Shown: positions 1-22,862 of the stretch, one piece after another | Position numbering within the stretch: position 1 is the stretch's first letter | Layout of the letters: each line of letters starts with the position of its first letter | Assembly: GCA_937921735.1 (NCBI GenBank) | Contig: CAKZTQ010000009.1 | Location: 1-22,862 of the forward strand | Length of the DNA stretch: 22,862 bases | Source of the DNA: an uncultured archaeon | Lineage (GTDB): Archaea; Hadarchaeota; Hadarchaeia; Hadarchaeales; Hadarchaeaceae | Direction: 5' to 3' | Translations under genes and position numbers: made by a program | The notes under the pieces: model-generated | Told to the model about the DNA's origin: nothing | Seen by the model: the letters and a program-made list of their open reading frames with translations, nothing else | Databases searched by the model: none

Positions 1-140
1 TTAGGATGTGGGGAGGTACGGGTTCCCCCCGAAAGGAGCTAAGCTTGATGAAGCCTCCGATGAACCCAGAGGAGGCAAAGGGCGATGAAGCCCAAGAGCT
101 AAGCATGGGCTCCATACATATCCATACTTAGTTCAGAACC
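1..140 (+). mobile_element. tnpB: 3' end of a tnpB-carrying IS (probably IS607-like, otherwise IS605-like); TnpB C-terminal tail and element end, continuing beyond the window's left edge
   Basis: Frame 3..131 reads RMWGGTGSPRKELSLMKPPMNPEEAKGDEAQELSMGSIHIHT*, which resembles archaeal TnpB tails (DNA motif GATGTGGGG...TTCCCCCCGAAAG...GATGAA). The junction at ~140 falls where the opposite-strand RHH gene loses its motif. Confidence 0.6.
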
Positions 141-269
141 CTCGCTTCTGCTGAAGAAGATGCCTCGCCCGATCAGATTGTCGAGCGCCCATATTTGCCT
201 CTTCGGCAACCGCGCCGTGACCAGTTGACGCTTTTCCGGTTCCGCATGATTTGGTTCCGGGCAATTCAT
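141..269 (-). pseudogene. Ribbon-helix-helix (CopG/Arc/MetJ-like) regulator truncated by IS insertion
   Basis: Manual translation MNCPEPNHAEPEKRQLVTARLPKRQIWALDNLIGRGIFFSRSE matches the RHH pattern (beta strand VTARLP, helix LDNLI, G-x-F-x-S-R-S-E) but lacks the expected AIRxA helix. ATGA overlap with the stop of 266..625. Confidence 0.7.
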
Positions 270-625
270 GAAGTTGCCTCCTTCTGACGCGGGGGCAGAA
301 CCCTGAACCTGACGCTTTTCCGCTTTCCCTCCAAAAGCGCCTTCACGTCTTCGGCGAAGGCCAGCATGTTGATCGATATCAGCACAAAGCGCCCGTCCCT
401 GCTGAGCCGCATCCTGATGGCTCCCTCTAAGGGCTGAGCTTTGGGTTGGGCTTTCTCAGCCTCGATTTTCAACCCGCTTACGCCGAGCTCCTTGGCCTTC
501 GCCTCGACCTCGGCCCTTTTGTCGTCGAGAACTTCCCAAACCCTCGCCTCAGCGTTCCACTTGGCGCCTACGCTCTTCAGGAACTCGACGAACGAAGCGT
601 TGTACTTGGAGGAAACCTTAACCAT
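266..625 (-). CDS. Small protein with a DUF5710/HARP-like N-terminal motif (possible nucleic-acid binding)
   Basis: YNASFVEFLKSVGAKWNAEARVWEV fits the K-x-x-G-A-x-W-x5-W pattern. Perfect SD AGGAGGTGATC at 630-640. Confidence 0.6.
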   Translation of the reverse strand: MVKVSSKYNASFVEFLKSVGAKWNAEARVWEVLDDKRAEVEAKAKELGVSGLKIEAEKAQPKAQPLEGAIRMRLSRDGRFVLISINMLAFAEDVKALLEGKRKSVRFRVLPPRQKEATS

Positions 626-719
626 GGGAGATCACCTCCTTAACGCTTTTTTACGCTTTTTCCCTTCCATCCCCATCAACCTCGAGTTTTGCCTCAATCT
701 TCTTCACCACAATCACCCA

Positions 720-1544
720 CTAACGTGATCCCTCAATATTTTTAAAAAAGGCCCCCACATGTCGCTCCGCGGCCAAGATGTGCTTGCACGGAAGCCTGAC
801 CCTCAGCCTTGGGTTGCGGTTCGACCGCCCGTAGTCCGGGCACTCGCACACATATGCTTCCAAATCCACGATATAACCTCTCACCCTGAACCTTGGGCCT
901 TCCAGCAAGACTATTTCTCCCGGCTTCACCTCCGCGGCCTTTTCCGCCTTGTACAGGCGCCAGTAGTCCCTCAGGGCAAGCTGGCTGAGCATATCCGCCT
1001 CCCCGTTCTCCTCGCGAGGAATCCATTGAAACCATACTTTTCCGAAGTTCGAGGAGAGCCTCCTCGCCTCCAAGTAAAGCGGGACGATCCTTGGGGCTCT
1101 GACCTCGTAGGCTCCCTGCATCTGCCTTATGCTCAACTGGCTGTCGCCCTTAACGAGCACTTCCGCGCCTGCGTAGCCGTTTTCCATGAGCCACGCGAAG
1201 GCTTTGATCATGGCCGTGTACTCAGCCACGTTGTTGCTTGCGCCCTCGCTCCACGGCTCGGCCGCCAGCCCCCTTCCCTCACCTATTTTCGCCCCGTCCC
1301 TGTACACGACGAACCCATACGTTGCCACGCCCCCGGGGTTGCGAGGCTCGCACAGTCCGTCATAATACACTTCAACCTTCGTTGCGGCTTTCGCTGCGGC
1401 CTTCGGGACAACCGTTGACGGCGGAGCCTCGATGGGGCGCAGCTCGCCACTTAAAGCCCTGTCGAGCGCATCCCTCCCATGCGCTTTCAGGACGTGGTCA
1501 TAGAACGCATCGACGGCTTGTTTGCATATGGGACAGATCGGCAC
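720..1544 (-). CDS. rnhA: Ribonuclease HI (archaeal type) with N-terminal C2H2-like Zn finger and C-terminal SWIM Zn finger
   Basis: YYDGLCEPRNPGG, SNNVAEY, KGDSQL and WIPREENGEAD give the full RNase HI D/E/D/D set. CPIC-x8-HVLKAH at the N-terminus; CECPDY...PCKH is a SWIM motif. Start inferred at GTG 1544 because the upstream part of the 720..1688 ORF is an IS remnant. Confidence 0.9.
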   Translation of the reverse strand: MPICPICKQAVDAFYDHVLKAHGRDALDRALSGELRPIEAPPSTVVPKAAAKAATKVEVYYDGLCEPRNPGGVATYGFVVYRDGAKIGEGRGLAAEPWSEGASNNVAEYTAMIKAFAWLMENGYAGAEVLVKGDSQLSIRQMQGAYEVRAPRIVPLYLEARRLSSNFGKVWFQWIPREENGEADMLSQLALRDYWRLYKAEKAAEVKPGEIVLLEGPRFRVRGYIVDLEAYVCECPDYGRSNRNPRLRVRLPCKHILAAERHVGAFFKNIEGSR

Positions 1545-1586
1545 CTTTGCAACGCCCCATTTTCCACAATTAACTTCCGAAGCTGA

Positions 1587-2217: not shown

Positions 2218-2792
2218 GAAATCCGGGGTGACTTAAACTTAACTCTCGACGAGGATGTGCTCAGCGATCGAAGGGGGACGACTTCGCCACGCGCGTGGCG
2301 GGCCTCGGCCATCGCTTCCCGCAAAGCCTCGTTGAGCCTGCGCAGGATTCTGCGCGCCTCATAGTCAAGGATCCCTTCCAAACACTCCTCCATTTCGCGG
2401 ACGTTTAAGTCGGCAAGCCCATACTTTCTCAGCAGCCCCTCAACTTCGAGCGAAACATTCAGCCTGACGAAGGGTCCGCGGTTTCTGTTCCATGAAATCT
2501 CCTCAACGTCCACATAATCGTGAACGTCAGGATTGCTGCCTGAAACGATCCTTTCAAGGGCAAGCGCTTTGAAAAATCTTTCCCAGCTTTCGCTCGCCAT
2601 TGAAAGCTCTTTCCGCAGTTCGCGATTCTCAAGATTCACGGCCACATCCCTGAAAACTATGGTGCAGTATTGGACTCCGTAGGTGTCAAGCTCTTCAACC
2701 TCGCCGAAGAATATCCCTATGCGCGCAAGCTCATCTCTGGCCTCGGCAACAATCTCGTCGATGACCTCGTCGATGATGTATGCGGGGAACAT
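2214..2792 (-). CDS. Hypothetical acidic protein, first gene after leader-repeat copy 1
   Basis: 192-aa ORF with SD GGAGGTGG at 2799-2806. Confidence 0.75.
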   Translation of the reverse strand: MFPAYIIDEVIDEIVAEARDELARIGIFFGEVEELDTYGVQYCTIVFRDVAVNLENRELRKELSMASESWERFFKALALERIVSGSNPDVHDYVDVEEISWNRNRGPFVRLNVSLEVEGLLRKYGLADLNVREMEECLEGILDYEARRILRRLNEALREAMAEARHARGEVVPLRSLSTSSSRVKFKSPRIS

Positions 2793-2799
2793 GGAAAAC

Positions 2800-2907
2800 C
2801 ACCTCCAGAAACGCGTATATGCCTCCTAGGGACTGGGCCATGCCGTTAAGCGCTTAACAGCCCAGCCGGGGCCAGGTCTTGGACGCCCCGTTCAAGCCCT
2901 AGGCTTG
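2800..2907 (-). repeat. Structured leader/promoter repeat, copy 1 (diverged)
   Basis: Core near-identical to copies 2 and 3. Differences are at 2816, at 2839, in the linker (ttcaag vs ctcag) and in the SD flank. Stems CCTAGGG 2825-2831 / CCCTAGG 2897-2903; palindrome 2845-2858. Confidence 0.95.
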
Positions 2908-2951
2908 TTAGAGAACCCGACTTTGGGTGGGGGCGGCTTGTCCCCGCCCTT

Positions 2952-17731: not shown

Positions 17732-17980
17732 TCAGTAGCTGTTTATCTCCTCGTCTATTTTCCGCTCAATCCATTCTGTAAGCTCTTTCGCGTCCACGCA
17801 TATCTCAGCCCACTCGTCGAACTTGCAGCCCTTCGGAGCGCCCGGATCCCTCATCTTACGCCTGATTCGAACCCTGTATGGGATGCCGAGCCGACTAAGC
17901 ACTTCCTCAGCTATGTCCGTTGCGATGTCATGGGCCCAGAACTCGAAGATGAGGATATCGCGTTTCAAATTCCTCGACAT
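17732..17980 (-). CDS. Hypothetical protein, first gene after leader-repeat copy 2
   Basis: SD GGAGGTGA and ATG are supplied by the repeat. Confidence 0.75.
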   Translation of the reverse strand: MSRNLKRDILIFEFWAHDIATDIAEEVLSRLGIPYRVRIRRKMRDPGAPKGCKFDEWAEICVDAKELTEWIERKIDEEINSY

Positions 17981-18101
17981 GGATCTTCACCTCCAAAAAA
18001 CGCGCATATGCCTCCTAGGGACTGGGCTATGCCGTTAAGCGCTTAACAGCCCAGCCGGGGCCAGGTCTTGGACGCCCCGCTCAGCCCTAGGCTTGGAAAA
18101 A
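17978..18101 (-). repeat. Structured leader/promoter repeat, copy 2
   Basis: 124 bp identical to 22712-22835, running through the SD and ATG. Confidence 0.97.
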
Positions 18102-18112
18102 GGAGTTGTGAT

Positions 18113-21553: not shown

Positions 21554-22714
21554 TTACAGCAGAGCCCTTCCCGTGAGCTCAAGACACTTGAGGACGGTTT
21601 GGTTCGCCTTCACAGCGTTGAAGACTTCCCGCCTTTTTGGCTTTTCGAGAAAGGCGAAGAGAGCCGACATGAACTCCCTATCGTCCGCCTCTGCAACGTA
21701 CTGCATGAACCCTTTAGCCTTCGAAATGTTCCCTGAGTCCTTGTTTATGGCTTCGGCAACGGTTATCGCTGCAAGGTACTTCTGCTCAACCTTGAAGTTG
21801 CTGACGAGTTGAGGCACCTTCACCAACTCGTCGAAGCTCGGAACCTTGTTGCTCAAGAACGCCATCAGGGTTTCACCGACCCTTCCAAGCTTGCCCTTGG
21901 CTATGCTGAAGAGGAGCTCCTCGCTGTTCCGCCGCTTCCGCGCTTTCACCTCGGCGAACGCCAAGGCAACATACGACCAGCCTCTGGGGGTTGCGGGAGG
22001 CTCGTAGCCGCTGTCCTCGACGGTGTCCAAGATGTTTGCGAGGAAGTCGCTCGGCTTCCAGTAAAGGTATGCGAGTACTTCTCGATCCCAGTTCTCGCGG
22101 CCGTACGTCTCATCCATCCACTCCGCCCAATCCTCAATCGGCGGAGCCTCGACCTCAACGAAGTCGAAGCGGTCTCTGAGCGGCTTCGGAATGCTGTTGG
22201 CTATGCTGCTGTACTGGGCGCTGTTTGAGGCTGCGATGACCATGGCTCTGGGGTTGAGGGCGATGTCGCCTATCTTGTAGTCGCGGACTATCTTGTAGGC
22301 GTTGGCGATCATGTTAGGTCGGCTCTCGTTGAGGAACTCATCTAGGAAGAGCAGTCCGGCGCAGGCGTTGAGAAGCCTCGCAACGCCCAAGGGGAGGAAC
22401 ATGACGTACTTCGAGTTGACCGGGCGGGGTTGTCCTGAAACGTCAACGGGATCCATGCTCGTAAGCCTGCAGTCCTTGAAGATGAAGTAGCGGTCTTCAT
22501 CTTCAAGGTACTTTTCAACTTCCTCAGGCGGTATCGCATCTGCGTCTACGAACTCGAGCTTAAGCTGCTTCGCCTTCCTCACCGCCCACGCCCTTGTGAA
22601 GGCCGATTTGCCTATTCCAGCGGGCCCTATGAGGTGCAGCGTTATTGGCTCGCGGCCTTTGATACGCATGTCGTAGGCGAGTTCAAACCTCTCAGCAAGG
22701 GATCCTAAACGCAT
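21554..22714 (-). CDS. MoxR-like / AAA_5 ATPase (virus-type, DUF2201-associated), first gene after repeat copy 3
   Basis: GPAGIGKS, DPVDVSGQP, LLFLDEF, IAASN, LRDRF, ATPRGW. Confidence 0.92.
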   Translation of the reverse strand: MRLGSLAERFELAYDMRIKGREPITLHLIGPAGIGKSAFTRAWAVRKAKQLKLEFVDADAIPPEEVEKYLEDEDRYFIFKDCRLTSMDPVDVSGQPRPVNSKYVMFLPLGVARLLNACAGLLFLDEFLNESRPNMIANAYKIVRDYKIGDIALNPRAMVIAASNSAQYSSIANSIPKPLRDRFDFVEVEAPPIEDWAEWMDETYGRENWDREVLAYLYWKPSDFLANILDTVEDSGYEPPATPRGWSYVALAFAEVKARKRRNSEELLFSIAKGKLGRVGETLMAFLSNKVPSFDELVKVPQLVSNFKVEQKYLAAITVAEAINKDSGNISKAKGFMQYVAEADDREFMSALFAFLEKPKRREVFNAVKANQTVLKCLELTGRALL

Positions 22715-22835
22715 GGATCTTCACCTCCAAAAAACGCGCATATGCCTCCTAGGGACTGGGCTATGCCGTTAAGCGCTTAACAGCCCAGCCGGGGCCAGGT
22801 CTTGGACGCCCCGCTCAGCCCTAGGCTTGGAAAAA
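22712..22835 (-). repeat. Structured leader/promoter repeat, copy 3
   Basis: Identical to 17978-18101. Stems 22748-22754 / 22819-22825; palindrome 22768-22781. Confidence 0.97.
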
Positions 22836-22862
22836 TGGGGGAGCTCAGCCACCTTGCCGGTT

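Follow-up and report, generated by a model that had tools for sequence, protein, structure and literature searches.

The repeat that precedes three genes of the analysed DNA is a previously uncatalogued folded RNA leader, predicted from comparison with its relatives to form a three-way junction with a probable pseudoknot, and it occurs in several archaeal lineages. The comparative analysis showed that it belongs to a conserved family of predicted structured sense-strand RNAs, whose three-way junction has a core of about 75-140 nt. Structured mRNA elements that act in cis are, to our knowledge, scarce in archaea, and hardly any have been described from uncultured lineages such as Bathyarchaeia.

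Copies of the element in the window

A repeat search and alignments of the window (i.e. the whole 22,862-nt stretch of DNA that was analysed) revealed three copies of the element, at 2790-2913 (copy 1), 17978-18101 (copy 2) and 22712-22835 (copy 3). All are placed on the minus (coding) strand, end with an SD sequence and an ATG, and are located immediately 5' of an ORF (Table 1), which agrees with the preliminary description of three coding-strand copies before gene starts. Copies 2 and 3 share 100% identity over 124 nt. Copy 1 departs from them by 9 substitutions and 2 one-base indels, which makes 11 differing columns; apart from three, these fall within the 5' flank or the pre-ATG spacer. 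Beyond the 124 nt the flanks of the three copies are unrelated, and the identity ceases at the ATG. The stems named earlier (P1 CCTAGGG/CCCTAGG, P2 CGGGGC/GCCCCG and P3 CTGGGCT/AGCCCAG) were found to be present, as was the sole in-stem change reported for copy 1, a coding-strand A to G substitution at 2839, which converts a U-A pair into U-G.

Copies 2 and 3 match perfectly between the T-run and the ATG, which might be the result of a recent gene conversion event or of recombination among the leaders of the cluster; such exchange is more readily taken as a by-product of their sequence identity. The end of contig C12 (same assembly) gave a fourth match, which represents the copy 3 locus, since the contig ends overlap by 141 nt. 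A solo 5' end of the element (AAGCCTAGGGCTaAGC) was identified at C12:128-143. In Logan contigs of the probable source-sample run, the depth was about 14-15 over the stretch, and the loose ends corresponded to the known copies plus one further context.

Table 1. Location of the element copies, their parts and the ORFs behind them (positions in the window)
Feature	Position	Strand	Remarks
Copy 1, whole unit	2790..2919	-	Diverged copy; CM R1 54.6 bits; precedes the 192-aa ORF (2214-2792)
Copy 1, parts	P1 2897-2903/2825-2831, P2 2867-2890, P3 2833-2865, tail 2821-2824, SD 2799-2806, ATG 2790-2792	-	
ORF behind copy 1, 192 aa	2214..2792	-	No assigned family; relatives in L010, L044, L013 and four other loci
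Copy 2, whole unit	17978..18107	-	5' pyrimidine tract, three-way junction (predicted), AGGC tail, T6 spacer, SD GGAGGTGA, ATG of the 82-aa ORF
Copy 2, 5' flank AACTCCTTTTTCCAAG	18092..18107	-	Pyrimidine tract and YAAG, conserved across family rows
Copy 2, P1 5' strand CCTAGGG	18085..18091	-	Partner 18014-18020
Copy 2, P2 hairpin CGGGGC-GTCCAAGACCTG-GCCCCG	18056..18079	-	12-nt loop with conserved GUCYAA and CCUG
Copy 2, P3 hairpin CTGGGCT...AGCCCAG	18022..18054	-	Tip 18029-18047 with 14-nt palindrome, not conserved in relatives
Copy 2, P1 3' strand CCCTAGG	18014..18020	-	
Copy 2, AGGC tail	18010..18013	-	AGG is the proposed pseudoknot partner of P2-loop CCU (18063-18065)
Copy 2, spacer ATATGCGCGTTTTTT, SD GGAGGTGA (17987-17994) and ATG (17978-17980)	17978..18009	-	
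ORF behind copy 2, 82 aa	17732..17980	-	L014 ortholog preceded by the same element subtype
Copy 3, whole unit	22712..22841	-	Equals copy 2 from T-run to ATG; CM R1 61.5 bits; precedes the 386-aa ATPase ORF
ORF behind copy 3, 386 aa, AAA+ (MoxR-like) ATPase	21554..22714	-	Anchor for fetching related loci

Homologs and covariation

Related loci were fetched via relatives of the ATPase encoded behind copy 3, and an nhmmer search with the three window copies identified relatives of the element within them. A covariance model (CM R1), built from six non-window sequences only, yielded 47 matches (44 distinct) in 89 sources, all 47 of them on the gene strand. The window copies, which had not been used in building the model, scored 54.6-61.5 bits (59.8 bits for copy 2, with the match at 18010-18107).

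In the family alignment (A7) of the CM R1 matches, which was fitted to the covariance model and so leans towards the structure, and in which many rows are orthologs and not independent, standard pairs occupied 97.7% of the 789 pair cells, as opposed to 78.2% in shuffles, and compensatory (both-side) changes were observed in 17 of the 20 pairs. In helix 1 (P1), seven of the eight pairs are compensated in the family. Doubly changed cells numbered 171, compared with 47.7 +/- 7.2 in shuffles (171 was reached in 0 of 500), and pairing fell to 35-54% when the partners were slid. An ungapped alignment of the six sequences made with MAFFT only was 96.7% paired and contained 7 compensated pairs. The coding strand showed 35 G-U/U-G cells versus 11 A-C/C-A cells, which points to a sense-strand RNA. 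The 44 distinct homologs and the pairs changed on both sides strongly support the original suggestion that the fold is under selection, while the strand bias of the wobble pairs and the location of every match on the gene strand favour that of a structured 5' RNA leader.

The folding energy of the single sequence was unexceptional (z = -1.0 for the coding strand and -0.5 for the other strand) and was discounted as an argument for or against the fold. As the thermodynamics of one sequence on its own fails to distinguish the fold, the case for it rests on the homologs and not on energy. As a compact motif of about 80 nt with strong covariation, the element is short enough for direct in vitro study.

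RNA-model scans, in which 27-150 first-look candidates were scored per genome, detected only the three copies in the 1.06-Mb genome; of the five genomes with the ATPase locus, four contained a single copy each. The element was found upstream of the ATPase in 21 of the 47 loci having at least 1300 nt of upstream sequence. No match was obtained in exact-pattern scans of viral contig and genome contig collections, in a search of viral contigs with a degenerate P2-loop pattern, or by blastn of the element against phages and plasmids, and the same was true of IMG/VR. The ATPase protein alone had no relative in viral contigs, and a BLAST-type search of 60 relatives gave one short partial match only. 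In the same genome, contig C27 offered a candidate chromosomal homolog, which was dismissed (11.4 bits at best with filters off). The motif description was not found in the literature (full text, and one preprint searched by terms), an earlier listing in atlases like that of the preprint being possible. The element is rare and tied to a dark-matter gene cluster, for which the covariance model provides a search handle in metagenomes.

Architecture of the family

The order of parts in the family is as follows: pyrimidine tract, YAAG, P1, P2 (with the loop GUCYAA..CCUG), a variable P3, P1', AGGY, spacer, SD and start codon. P1 comprises 7-8 bp and P2 6 bp with a conserved 12-nt loop, and P3 is variable in length. 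The conserved unpaired junction nucleotides are (i) YAAG before P1, (ii) ..YRAN before P2, (iii) one purine and one U that form the two remaining junction strands, and (iv) AGGY after P1; the junction strands are about 5, 1 and 1 nt long. About 25 unpaired positions are conserved across the family rows. The tip of P3, which in the window copies holds GTTAAGCGCTTAAC, is not among the conserved parts. The 14-nt palindrome located there is private to the window copies, so the "perfect 14-bp palindrome" of the preliminary description has to be withdrawn as a conserved feature of the element and regarded only as the tip of a variable arm.

It is probable that CCU in the P2 loop forms base pairs with the AGG that directly follows P1, which would give rise to a pseudoknot. 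One of the proposed pairs is variable (U-A in 36 sequences, C-G in 2 from two different lineages, and other combinations in the 2 weakest matches), and the remaining two are almost invariant. In L104, a weaker member of the family, loop CCC is placed against tail AGG, which creates a mismatch in the proposed pseudoknot.

One relative (G002) carries two stand-alone copies, in which P1 lies about 40 nt downstream of a TATA box (A/T boxes TTTATAAA and TTTTTAAA) and a T-run follows the element; both lack the pyrimidine tract. The TATA box and T-run would imply that these copies are transcribed. Their existence suggests that the junction is an autonomous RNA domain and that the pyrimidine tract is tied to the copies acting as mRNA leaders.

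Genomic context

An SD-led ORF begins 13-42 nt after AGGY in 41 of the 44 matches listed, and in 16 of the 44 the stop codon of an ORF with 60 codons or more lies at most 32 nt before P1 (for copies following a stop codon the gap is 13-32 nt). Copy 3 is located about 20 nt after the stop codon of an RHH gene lying on contig C12. Archaeal promoters (BRE/TATA) have an A/T-rich box about 26 nt ahead of the transcript start. Reading of the upstream sequences revealed no TATA-like box at the usual distance to start an RNA before P1 in most copies. A/T-rich words 13-27 nt upstream were considered as TATA boxes and rejected, as they proved to be stop codons of the upstream genes.

The host cluster is a 25-kb same-strand gene array, which contains MoxR-like ATPase/VWA pairs, its own TBP homolog and NikA-like RHH proteins; a small protein with a PPEEYVIQG motif is also among the cluster proteins. 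The cluster is accessory and widespread, occurs sporadically in Bathyarchaeia and other archaea, and is probably mobile. Most of its proteins matched no named family in Pfam, PHROGs, PADLOC, NCBIfam, PDB sequences or the ESM Atlas, and no candidate binding protein was identified. Up to four elements, each before a different gene, are present in the stretch fetched from one gene cluster. Downstream genes represent at least six unrelated families without assigned function within one cluster. The order of the gene blocks bounded by elements differs among loci. The earlier view that the element simply precedes unrelated first genes needs correction: two of the three element-gene pairs of the window recur as pairs in other loci, and the L010 relative of the 192-aa ORF is also preceded by the element. 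The repeated occurrence of the element before different genes of one cluster points to post-transcriptional control of each gene block.

Comparison with catalogued RNAs and DNA elements

Rfam 15 gave no match in the window at the gathering score, and around copy 2 only nos_TCE was recorded (16.4 bits, E 1.3). Five loci holding 11 elements gave no match at E <= 0.1, and in six further loci a tRNA and a weak mascRNA-like match were detected beside the element and none on it. These results are in line with the initial impression that this is not a known riboswitch or ribozyme.

Several specific candidates were rejected. None of the known self-cleaving ribozymes (hammerhead, twister, twister-sister, pistol, hatchet, HDV-like) had an Rfam match, and an HDV-like mapping, tried by reading, was dropped since the order of the strands is not that of HDV-like folds. 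There is no tRNA in the window (ARAGORN and the Rfam tRNA model), nor on the elements of the six other loci, and a K-turn mapping, tried by reading, was dropped. The match to an IS end or MITE that was named at the outset as a refuting result was not found, nor was one to a plasmid or phage; a MITE or IS end is further opposed by the presence of only three copies in the genome, with unique flanks and a boundary at the ATG. The attC sites of integrons are single imperfect hairpins with R''/R' core sites (GTTRRRY/RYYYAAC) at the base, and belong to cassette arrays beside an integron integrase. The element is predicted to fold as a three-way junction, words resembling these motifs are confined to the tip of P3 in the window copies and are not shared by relatives, and no integrase was seen among the ORFs scanned.

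Proposed role of the leader and alternative explanations

We tentatively favour, as the best explanation, a conserved sense-strand RNA leader that acts in cis on the next cistron via a trans factor; the mechanism itself, i.e. a factor-binding leader governing translation or stability of the downstream cistron, is our best guess. The factor-binding idea is based on the conserved unpaired positions and on the autonomous copies of G002. The element would serve as a cis binding platform for the trans factor, most likely a cluster- or host-encoded protein, and less likely a small ligand. The folded junction would keep the 5' pyrimidine tract beside the purine-rich spacer and the SD, where a long-range helix (P0) could occlude or expose the ribosome-binding site. 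Switching of P0 would set translation, and thereby stability, separately for each gene block. The MFE structure pairs the SD with the 5' tract (P0) in roughly half of 36 leaders, a pairing not separable from composition (SD pairing of 0.56 with the real 5' flank, 0.52 with shuffled and 0.37 with far flanks). The flank/SD duplex energy was -10.60 kcal/mol for cognate versus -10.47 kcal/mol for non-cognate combinations (permutation p = 0.37). The junction-to-SD distance varies, sometimes with an extra hairpin, and no uniform expression platform is visible.

It is somewhat unlikely that archaeal mobile elements carry here a new class of functional RNA in which the fold itself does the work, either as a prokaryotic counterpart of viral exoribonuclease-resistant RNAs (xrRNAs), capping the cistron blocks of an uncapped polycistronic mRNA against 5'-3' decay, or as a new self-cleaving ribozyme that cuts at the 5' edge. 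An xrRNA-like or processing/stability module, which we regard as unlikely, would have the long co-directional transcript cut in the unstructured U-rich tract and 5'-3' decay, of which RNase J/aCPSF2-type enzymes are agents, halted at the compact junction-plus-pseudoknot; each downstream block may then persist as an mRNA that is stable, begins with a structured 5' end and has its SD free. This explanation is consistent with the intercistronic location of the element, right after stop codons and ahead of the SD, with the several copies per long same-strand gene array, and with the U- or C-rich single-stranded tract at the 5' edge. Moreover, the predicted secondary-structure class of the element, with its probable pseudoknot, corresponds to that of flavivirus xrRNAs, in which, according to PMC3968743, three helices meet at a junction whose unpaired nucleotides are conserved and a hairpin loop forms a pseudoknot with nucleotides just downstream of P1. 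However, there is no sequence likeness to any Rfam family, and the promoter-driven stand-alone copies of G002 would need no protection from upstream decay. In flaviviral xrRNAs a pairing of the 5' end with the junction threads the ring, and no counterpart of it was found when the YAAG flank was inspected by eye for complementarity.

Control at the level of transcription, by an attenuator or a put/EAR-type processive antiterminator acting on the oligo-T signals of the archaeal polymerase, seems quite unlikely. Sense-strand T5+ runs are depleted in coding sequence (7 versus 17 antisense), whereas intergenic DNA, about 19% of the window, holds 8 of the 15 and is thus enriched in them, as expected if T-runs terminate transcription; the junction of copies 2 and 3 is flanked by a T5 and a T6 run, a T4-T6 stretch separates AGGY from the SD in about 9 of 37 leaders, and the 25-kb array encodes its own TBP homolog. 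However, most family members have an A-rich spacer and no T-run past the junction, and in some copies, such as window copy 1 and L010 at 3398, the run in front consists of C or is a T-run that is broken. In addition, we know of no RNA-based antitermination in archaea.

A new class of self-cleaving ribozyme, cutting polycistronic transcripts at the edge of the motif, is very unlikely. The small size of the motif, its many conserved unpaired nucleotides, the probable pseudoknot, and the recurrence between same-strand genes of a probably mobile cluster would all suit such an activity, and hammerhead, twister, pistol and hatchet motifs are known from intergenic settings in mobile clusters. Against this, no Rfam ribozyme match was obtained at E <= 10 around copy 2, nor on 11 further loci at E <= 0.1, the short junction strands (about 5, 1 and 1 nt) do not contain the core words of the hammerhead, and most newly found conserved motifs turn out to be something other than ribozymes.

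That the element works at the DNA level, be it as a cassette boundary or site of recombination, as the end of an IS or a MITE, or as a promoter/operator whose palindrome binds a protein, is extremely improbable, and the DNA hairpin reading is now unlikely: identical copies 2 and 3 with unrelated flanks, reordered element-bounded gene blocks, the solo 5' end (AAGCCTAGGGCTaAGC) on C12 and the perfect palindrome of the P3 tip in the window are countered by stems that covary freely (a protein site would conserve sequence), G-U pairs tolerated on one strand only, the lack of conservation of the palindrome, the absence of terminal inverted repeats, target duplications and plasmid, phage or IMG/VR matches, a repeat boundary exactly at the ATG, and the lack of a TATA box at the proper distance in most copies, the stand-alone ones having a separate TATA box and T-run.

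Relation to known systems

The favoured factor-binding leader shares with riboswitches a conserved aptamer-type core with covariation; it differs from them in that the downstream genes form no coherent set serving the metabolism or transport of one ligand, no uniform (mutually exclusive) expression platform is seen, and the P0 test was negative. Leaders that occlude the SD include ribosomal-protein and phage operators, riboswitch platforms and RNA thermometers of the fourU and ROSE types. The element resembles them in that its structure lies just 5' of an SD that is strong, its U/C-rich strand could pair with the GGAGG region, and its conserved loops would suit the binding of a factor. In contrast to such leaders, its tract-SD pairing is not separable from composition, it has no known ligand or protein, and several copies precede diverse genes of one accessory cluster and not a metabolite-defined regulon.

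The put RNA of HK022 and the EAR element of Bacillus, the latter intercistronic, are structured processive antitermination RNAs with a pseudoknot. Like them, the element is a (probably) pseudoknotted structured RNA situated inside long operons that consist of horizontally acquired genes, or at their beginning. It shows no sequence likeness to these bacterial RNAs, and the archaeal polymerase and oligo-T termination are different.

With flavivirus xrRNAs, as presented in PMC3968743, the element has in common a P1-P2-P3 junction of roughly 60-90 nt, conserved unpaired nucleotides, a pseudoknot (only probable in the element) between a loop and the nucleotides after P1, a position on the 5' side of the RNA to be protected, and the occurrence of more than one copy per RNA. 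The resemblance is one of architecture only, without likeness in sequence or covariance model, and the viral elements reside in the 3' UTR of an RNA virus, whereas the archaeal one is a DNA-encoded mRNA leader followed by an SD and an ORF.

Finally, "mobile promoters" and intergenic repeat families are near-identical non-coding sequences found before unrelated genes of one genome. The copies analysed here are likewise near-identical and precede different genes in one genome. However, the element is probably not a promoter, and what it has kept across distant genomes, while its sequence diverged, is a covarying RNA fold.

Copies of the element in the archaeal assembly

The analysis revealed a new, conserved, sense-strand structured RNA family, whose members lie in leaders or between cistrons of a single accessory gene cluster. 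The assembly (1.06 Mb, 60 contigs, 83% complete), in which the window constitutes the whole of contig C9, is archaeal, as indicated by an archaeal SSU rRNA on contig C55 (1520 bits) and an archaeal RNase P RNA. All likely genes picked in the window lie on the minus strand, and repeat search and alignments identified a 124-nt unit present three times on this strand. The three copies before gene starts reported in the preliminary description are therefore real. Copies 2 and 3 show no difference, and copy 1 differs in 11 columns, most of them within the 5' flank or the spacer that leads to the ATG. Just one difference lies in a stem (A to G at 2839), where, as had been stated, U-A becomes a U-G wobble on the coding strand. 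The likeness starts at the T-run and stops precisely at the ATG; the flanks outside are unrelated. The folding energy of a single copy is unremarkable (z = -1.0).

Contigs C12 (2609 nt) and C9 overlap by 141 nt at their ends, and thus an apparent fourth copy at the end of C12 is the copy 3 locus, and C12 shows what lies upstream of copy 3: an RHH-domain gene there has its stop codon about 20 nt before the element. In Logan contigs of X1, the only run containing this DNA, window depth is even (about 14-15) and repeats are deeper. A loose end in X1 at window position 22722 carries an extra element context, with an SD and then a different ORF start (MPNWRFLM..), which is present in the source metagenome and not in the binned, assembled genome. 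The assembly fork at the start of C9 points either to strain variants, some carrying the cluster and others lacking it, or to a repeat; both adjoining contigs carry ORFs that resemble pilins or surface proteins.

Coordinates of the element copies and associated features
Feature	Sequence	Position	Gene concerned	Remarks
Element copy 1	C9, minus strand	2790-2913	192-aa protein (2214-2792)	
Element copy 2	C9, minus strand	17978-18101	82-85-aa protein (82 aa, 17732-17980)	
Element copy 3	C9, minus strand	22712-22835	386-aa MoxR-like ATPase (21554-22714)	
Possible decayed gene (about 300 nt)	C9	18102-18410		upstream of copy 2; short frames, including Walker-A-like stretch ..LYGDVSWGKKATS.., ending about 20 nt before copy 2
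RBS region	C9	590-660	ORF 266-625	GGAGGTGATCTCCCATG, resembles RBS of element copies; junction absent
Start of C9	C9	1-141		also at ends of C36 (125 nt) and C34 (140 nt, branching)
C12/C9 overlap	C9	22722-22862		
TBP homolog	C12, opposite strand	140-670		identified by reading
Solo 5' end of element	C12	128-143		AAGCCTAGGGCTaAGC, 15/16 identical; right after TBP stop; orientation of copy 3
Inverted-repeat region	C12	1470-1600 (475-605 of fetched locus L003)	first RHH gene, just downstream	A/T-rich; CTGTATCACAAAAA / TTTTTGTGATACAG and a third, ATATCACAAAAA, around TATA-like boxes
Stand-alone copy	L106 (genome G002)	1501-1578		
Stand-alone copy	L107 (genome G002)	145-222		
Second structured leader	L108, and corresponding part of L109	380-480		about 250 nt after the element

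Relatives of the element

The element sequence gave no match in 60 related genomes or in phage and plasmid records, nor did its exact pattern in IMG/VR and GTDB species genomes. No family of Rfam 15 matched, in line with the initial failure to recognise a known riboswitch or ribozyme. Because its own sequence found nothing, relatives were sought via the gene behind copy 3, an AAA+ ATPase (PHROG 'ATPase') with 82 relatives, the named ones from Bathyarchaeia, Thermofilaceae, Methanomethylicaceae, Marsarchaeota and a Thermococci MAG; 87 loci were fetched around genes of this type. Searched with an nhmmer profile built from the window's three copies, these ATPase loci gave matches, each time on the gene strand (E from 2e-20 to marginal), and on reading the matches had the same architecture with different stem sequences. 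A covariance model seeded with six relatives (ungapped, aligned with MAFFT, window sequences left out, structure supplied by us) yielded 47 matches in 467,618 bases, all of them full length and on the ATPase strand, and scored the window copies at 61.5, 59.8 and 54.6 bits. It also matched members distant from any ATPase gene, whose stem sequences were again new.

Covariation and strand

In the model alignment of 44 distinct rows, whose figures overstate independence because the rows were fitted to the model and are in many cases orthologous, standard pairs fill 97.7% of 789 cells (78.2% in shuffles), 17 of the 20 pairs are changed on both sides, doubly changed cells number 171 (47.7 ± 7.2 in shuffles, none of 500 as high), and sliding the 3' partners by 1-3 columns leaves 35-54% paired. 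The six-sequence MAFFT alignment, fitted to nothing, is 96.7% paired, with seven compensated pairs (30-52% when slid). A model-free parse revealed P1 strands that match yet differ widely (CCTAGGG, CTGAAGG, CCAGCCG, CTGGGGG, CCGACTGG and others). These compensatory changes support the earlier proposal of a fold under selection. The wobble asymmetry first noticed at 2839 is also seen across the aligned family, where 35 G-U/U-G cells stand against 11 A-C/C-A; the coding strand is therefore the one on which the structure is read.

Anatomy of the family

From 5' to 3', the element consists of a pyrimidine tract (usually T4-T7, at times C-rich), YAAG, stem P1 (7-8 bp), a strand of 5-7 nt ending YRAN, stem P2 (6 bp), a single purine, the variable stem P3 (from 3 bp up to over 60 nt), one or two U, and the 3' strand of P1 followed by AGGY; a spacer of 13-42 nt, often A-rich, leads to a strong SD and the start codon. 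The P2 loop begins GUCYAA and ends CCUG, and tolerates insertions between these halves, including a nested hairpin. The stems of the three-way junction originally proposed are thus kept in the family, but its palindrome is not: these 14 nt form the tip of P3, and the nearest relative (L014), which precedes an orthologous gene, has another tip.

The CCU of the P2 loop is complementary to the AGG after P1. The loop reads CCC in two lineages and the tail GGG in exactly those two; the variable pair is U-A in 36 cases, C-G in 2 and other in 2, both being the weakest matches. One weaker member (L104) breaks the rule. Judged from these sequences, a CCU:AGG pseudoknot is probable.

The two stand-alone, promoter-driven copies in G002, a relative of the window's class, are preceded by a box (TTTATAAA or TTTTTAAA) at about 40 nt from P1 and followed by a T-run; no ORF is evident, and the pyrimidine tract is absent. 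These copies show that the junction is an RNA domain in its own right and that the tract is associated with the mRNA-leader copies. In L107 the element is followed by a tRNA-like fold (weak mascRNA-like Rfam match) and a 24-nt direct repeat; in L106 a divergent tRNA-Pro gene lies about 100 nt away.

Two further structures were observed near the element. The second, different leader in L108 and L109 has a T-run before it, an SD after it, a CTGGGT...ACCCAG closing stem and inner hairpins; the order T-run, structure, SD may recur generally in clusters of this kind. In three single-copy loci (L090, L091, L092) a conserved palindrome, CGCA-N2-3-TGCG, in a 14-16-nt hairpin precedes the element by about 25-45 nt; it is flanked by a TATA-like word and the pyrimidine tract, and may be an operator of the leader-driving promoter.

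Genomic context, rarity and recombination

Among the 44 matches listed, 41 are followed by an SD-led ORF, and in 16 the end of an ORF of 60 codons or more lies within the 32 nt before P1; many copies are therefore intercistronic, without space for a promoter. A/T-rich words upstream were rejected as promoter boxes, being stop codons of the upstream genes. The genes served belong to several families: a small PPEEYVIQG-motif protein, the 82-85-aa protein of copy 2, the 192-aa protein of copy 1, 44-48-aa peptides, a protein that on reading looks MucR-like, and others. In this respect the first genes are unrelated, as originally described, but for two of the three element-gene pairs in the window the same pairing is seen in other loci.

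The cluster comprises C12 and C9 (25.3 kb). Besides the TBP homolog, C12 carries a 201-aa ORF and two NikA-like RHH proteins; the cluster also encodes two MoxR-like ATPase/VWA pairs (one with DUF2201), a radical-SAM protein, a nucleotidyltransferase and an RNase H-like/SWIM protein, and many of its ORFs belong to no family. The GGAGGTGA SD is a habit of the entire cluster. The inverted-repeat region on C12 looks like a promoter/operator or an origin. Gene order differs between loci carrying the same cluster genes. No integrase or capsid gene was found, so that mobility of the cluster is an inference.

The element is rare. Among the candidates scored in the genome scans, on which these counts rest, it was detected three times in the window's genome, once each in four of five genomes holding the ATPase locus, and in 3 of 65 genomes of the window's class, itself included. 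For G061, the Bathyarchaeia MAG holding L090, the scans found it in 4 of 151 sampled genomes of the class (centre genome included) and in none of 150 others sampled from the phylum. Where ATPase loci extend at least 1300 nt upstream, 21 of 47 have it there. This rarity, together with the cluster context, is consistent with an accessory cluster that is probably mobile.

The best explanation for copies 2 and 3 being identical is that leaders have recently undergone gene conversion or recombined with each other. We suggest that such recombination also reshuffles gene blocks, because of the solo 5' end on C12 (which may be a recombination relic), the decayed ORF remnant upstream of copy 2, and the small PPEEYVIQG-motif gene, which precedes the ATPase in most loci and is missing from the window's genome.

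Possible function

The element would act in cis on the downstream cistron. Our preferred, still tentative, mechanism is a factor-binding junction that would control how accessible the ribosome-binding site is and thereby also the stability of the mRNA. Base pairing between the tract and the purine-rich spacer plus SD is possible, and about half of 36 leaders show it in the MFE structure. Real and shuffled tracts did not separate (0.56 vs 0.52), and cognate pairing was no better than non-cognate (p = 0.37); tract:SD pairing is plausible, and inseparable from composition.

An xrRNA-like or processing module is less likely, and Rfam searches gave no sequence likeness to xrRNAs; its architecture is considered below. 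Transcription attenuation or antitermination is more doubtful. Sense-strand T5+ runs, which may terminate transcription here, are rarer in coding sequence and enriched between genes, and T5 and T6 flank copies 2 and 3, but most relatives have an A-rich spacer instead of a T-run. A new ribozyme appears slightly less probable again, and a role at the DNA level, set beside a structure read on the coding strand, is highly improbable.

No description of the motif was found in the literature, cluster tables and supplements of recent intergenic atlases lying outside that scope, and we regard the element as a new family among structured cis-acting leaders. A more unusual identity for the element, namely an archaeal xrRNA-like block or ribozyme, is a minority possibility. 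According to PMC3968743, flavivirus xrRNAs combine a three-helix junction and conserved junction bases with a pseudoknot between a loop and the bases directly after P1; the architecture of the element, with its probable pseudoknot, matches this description.
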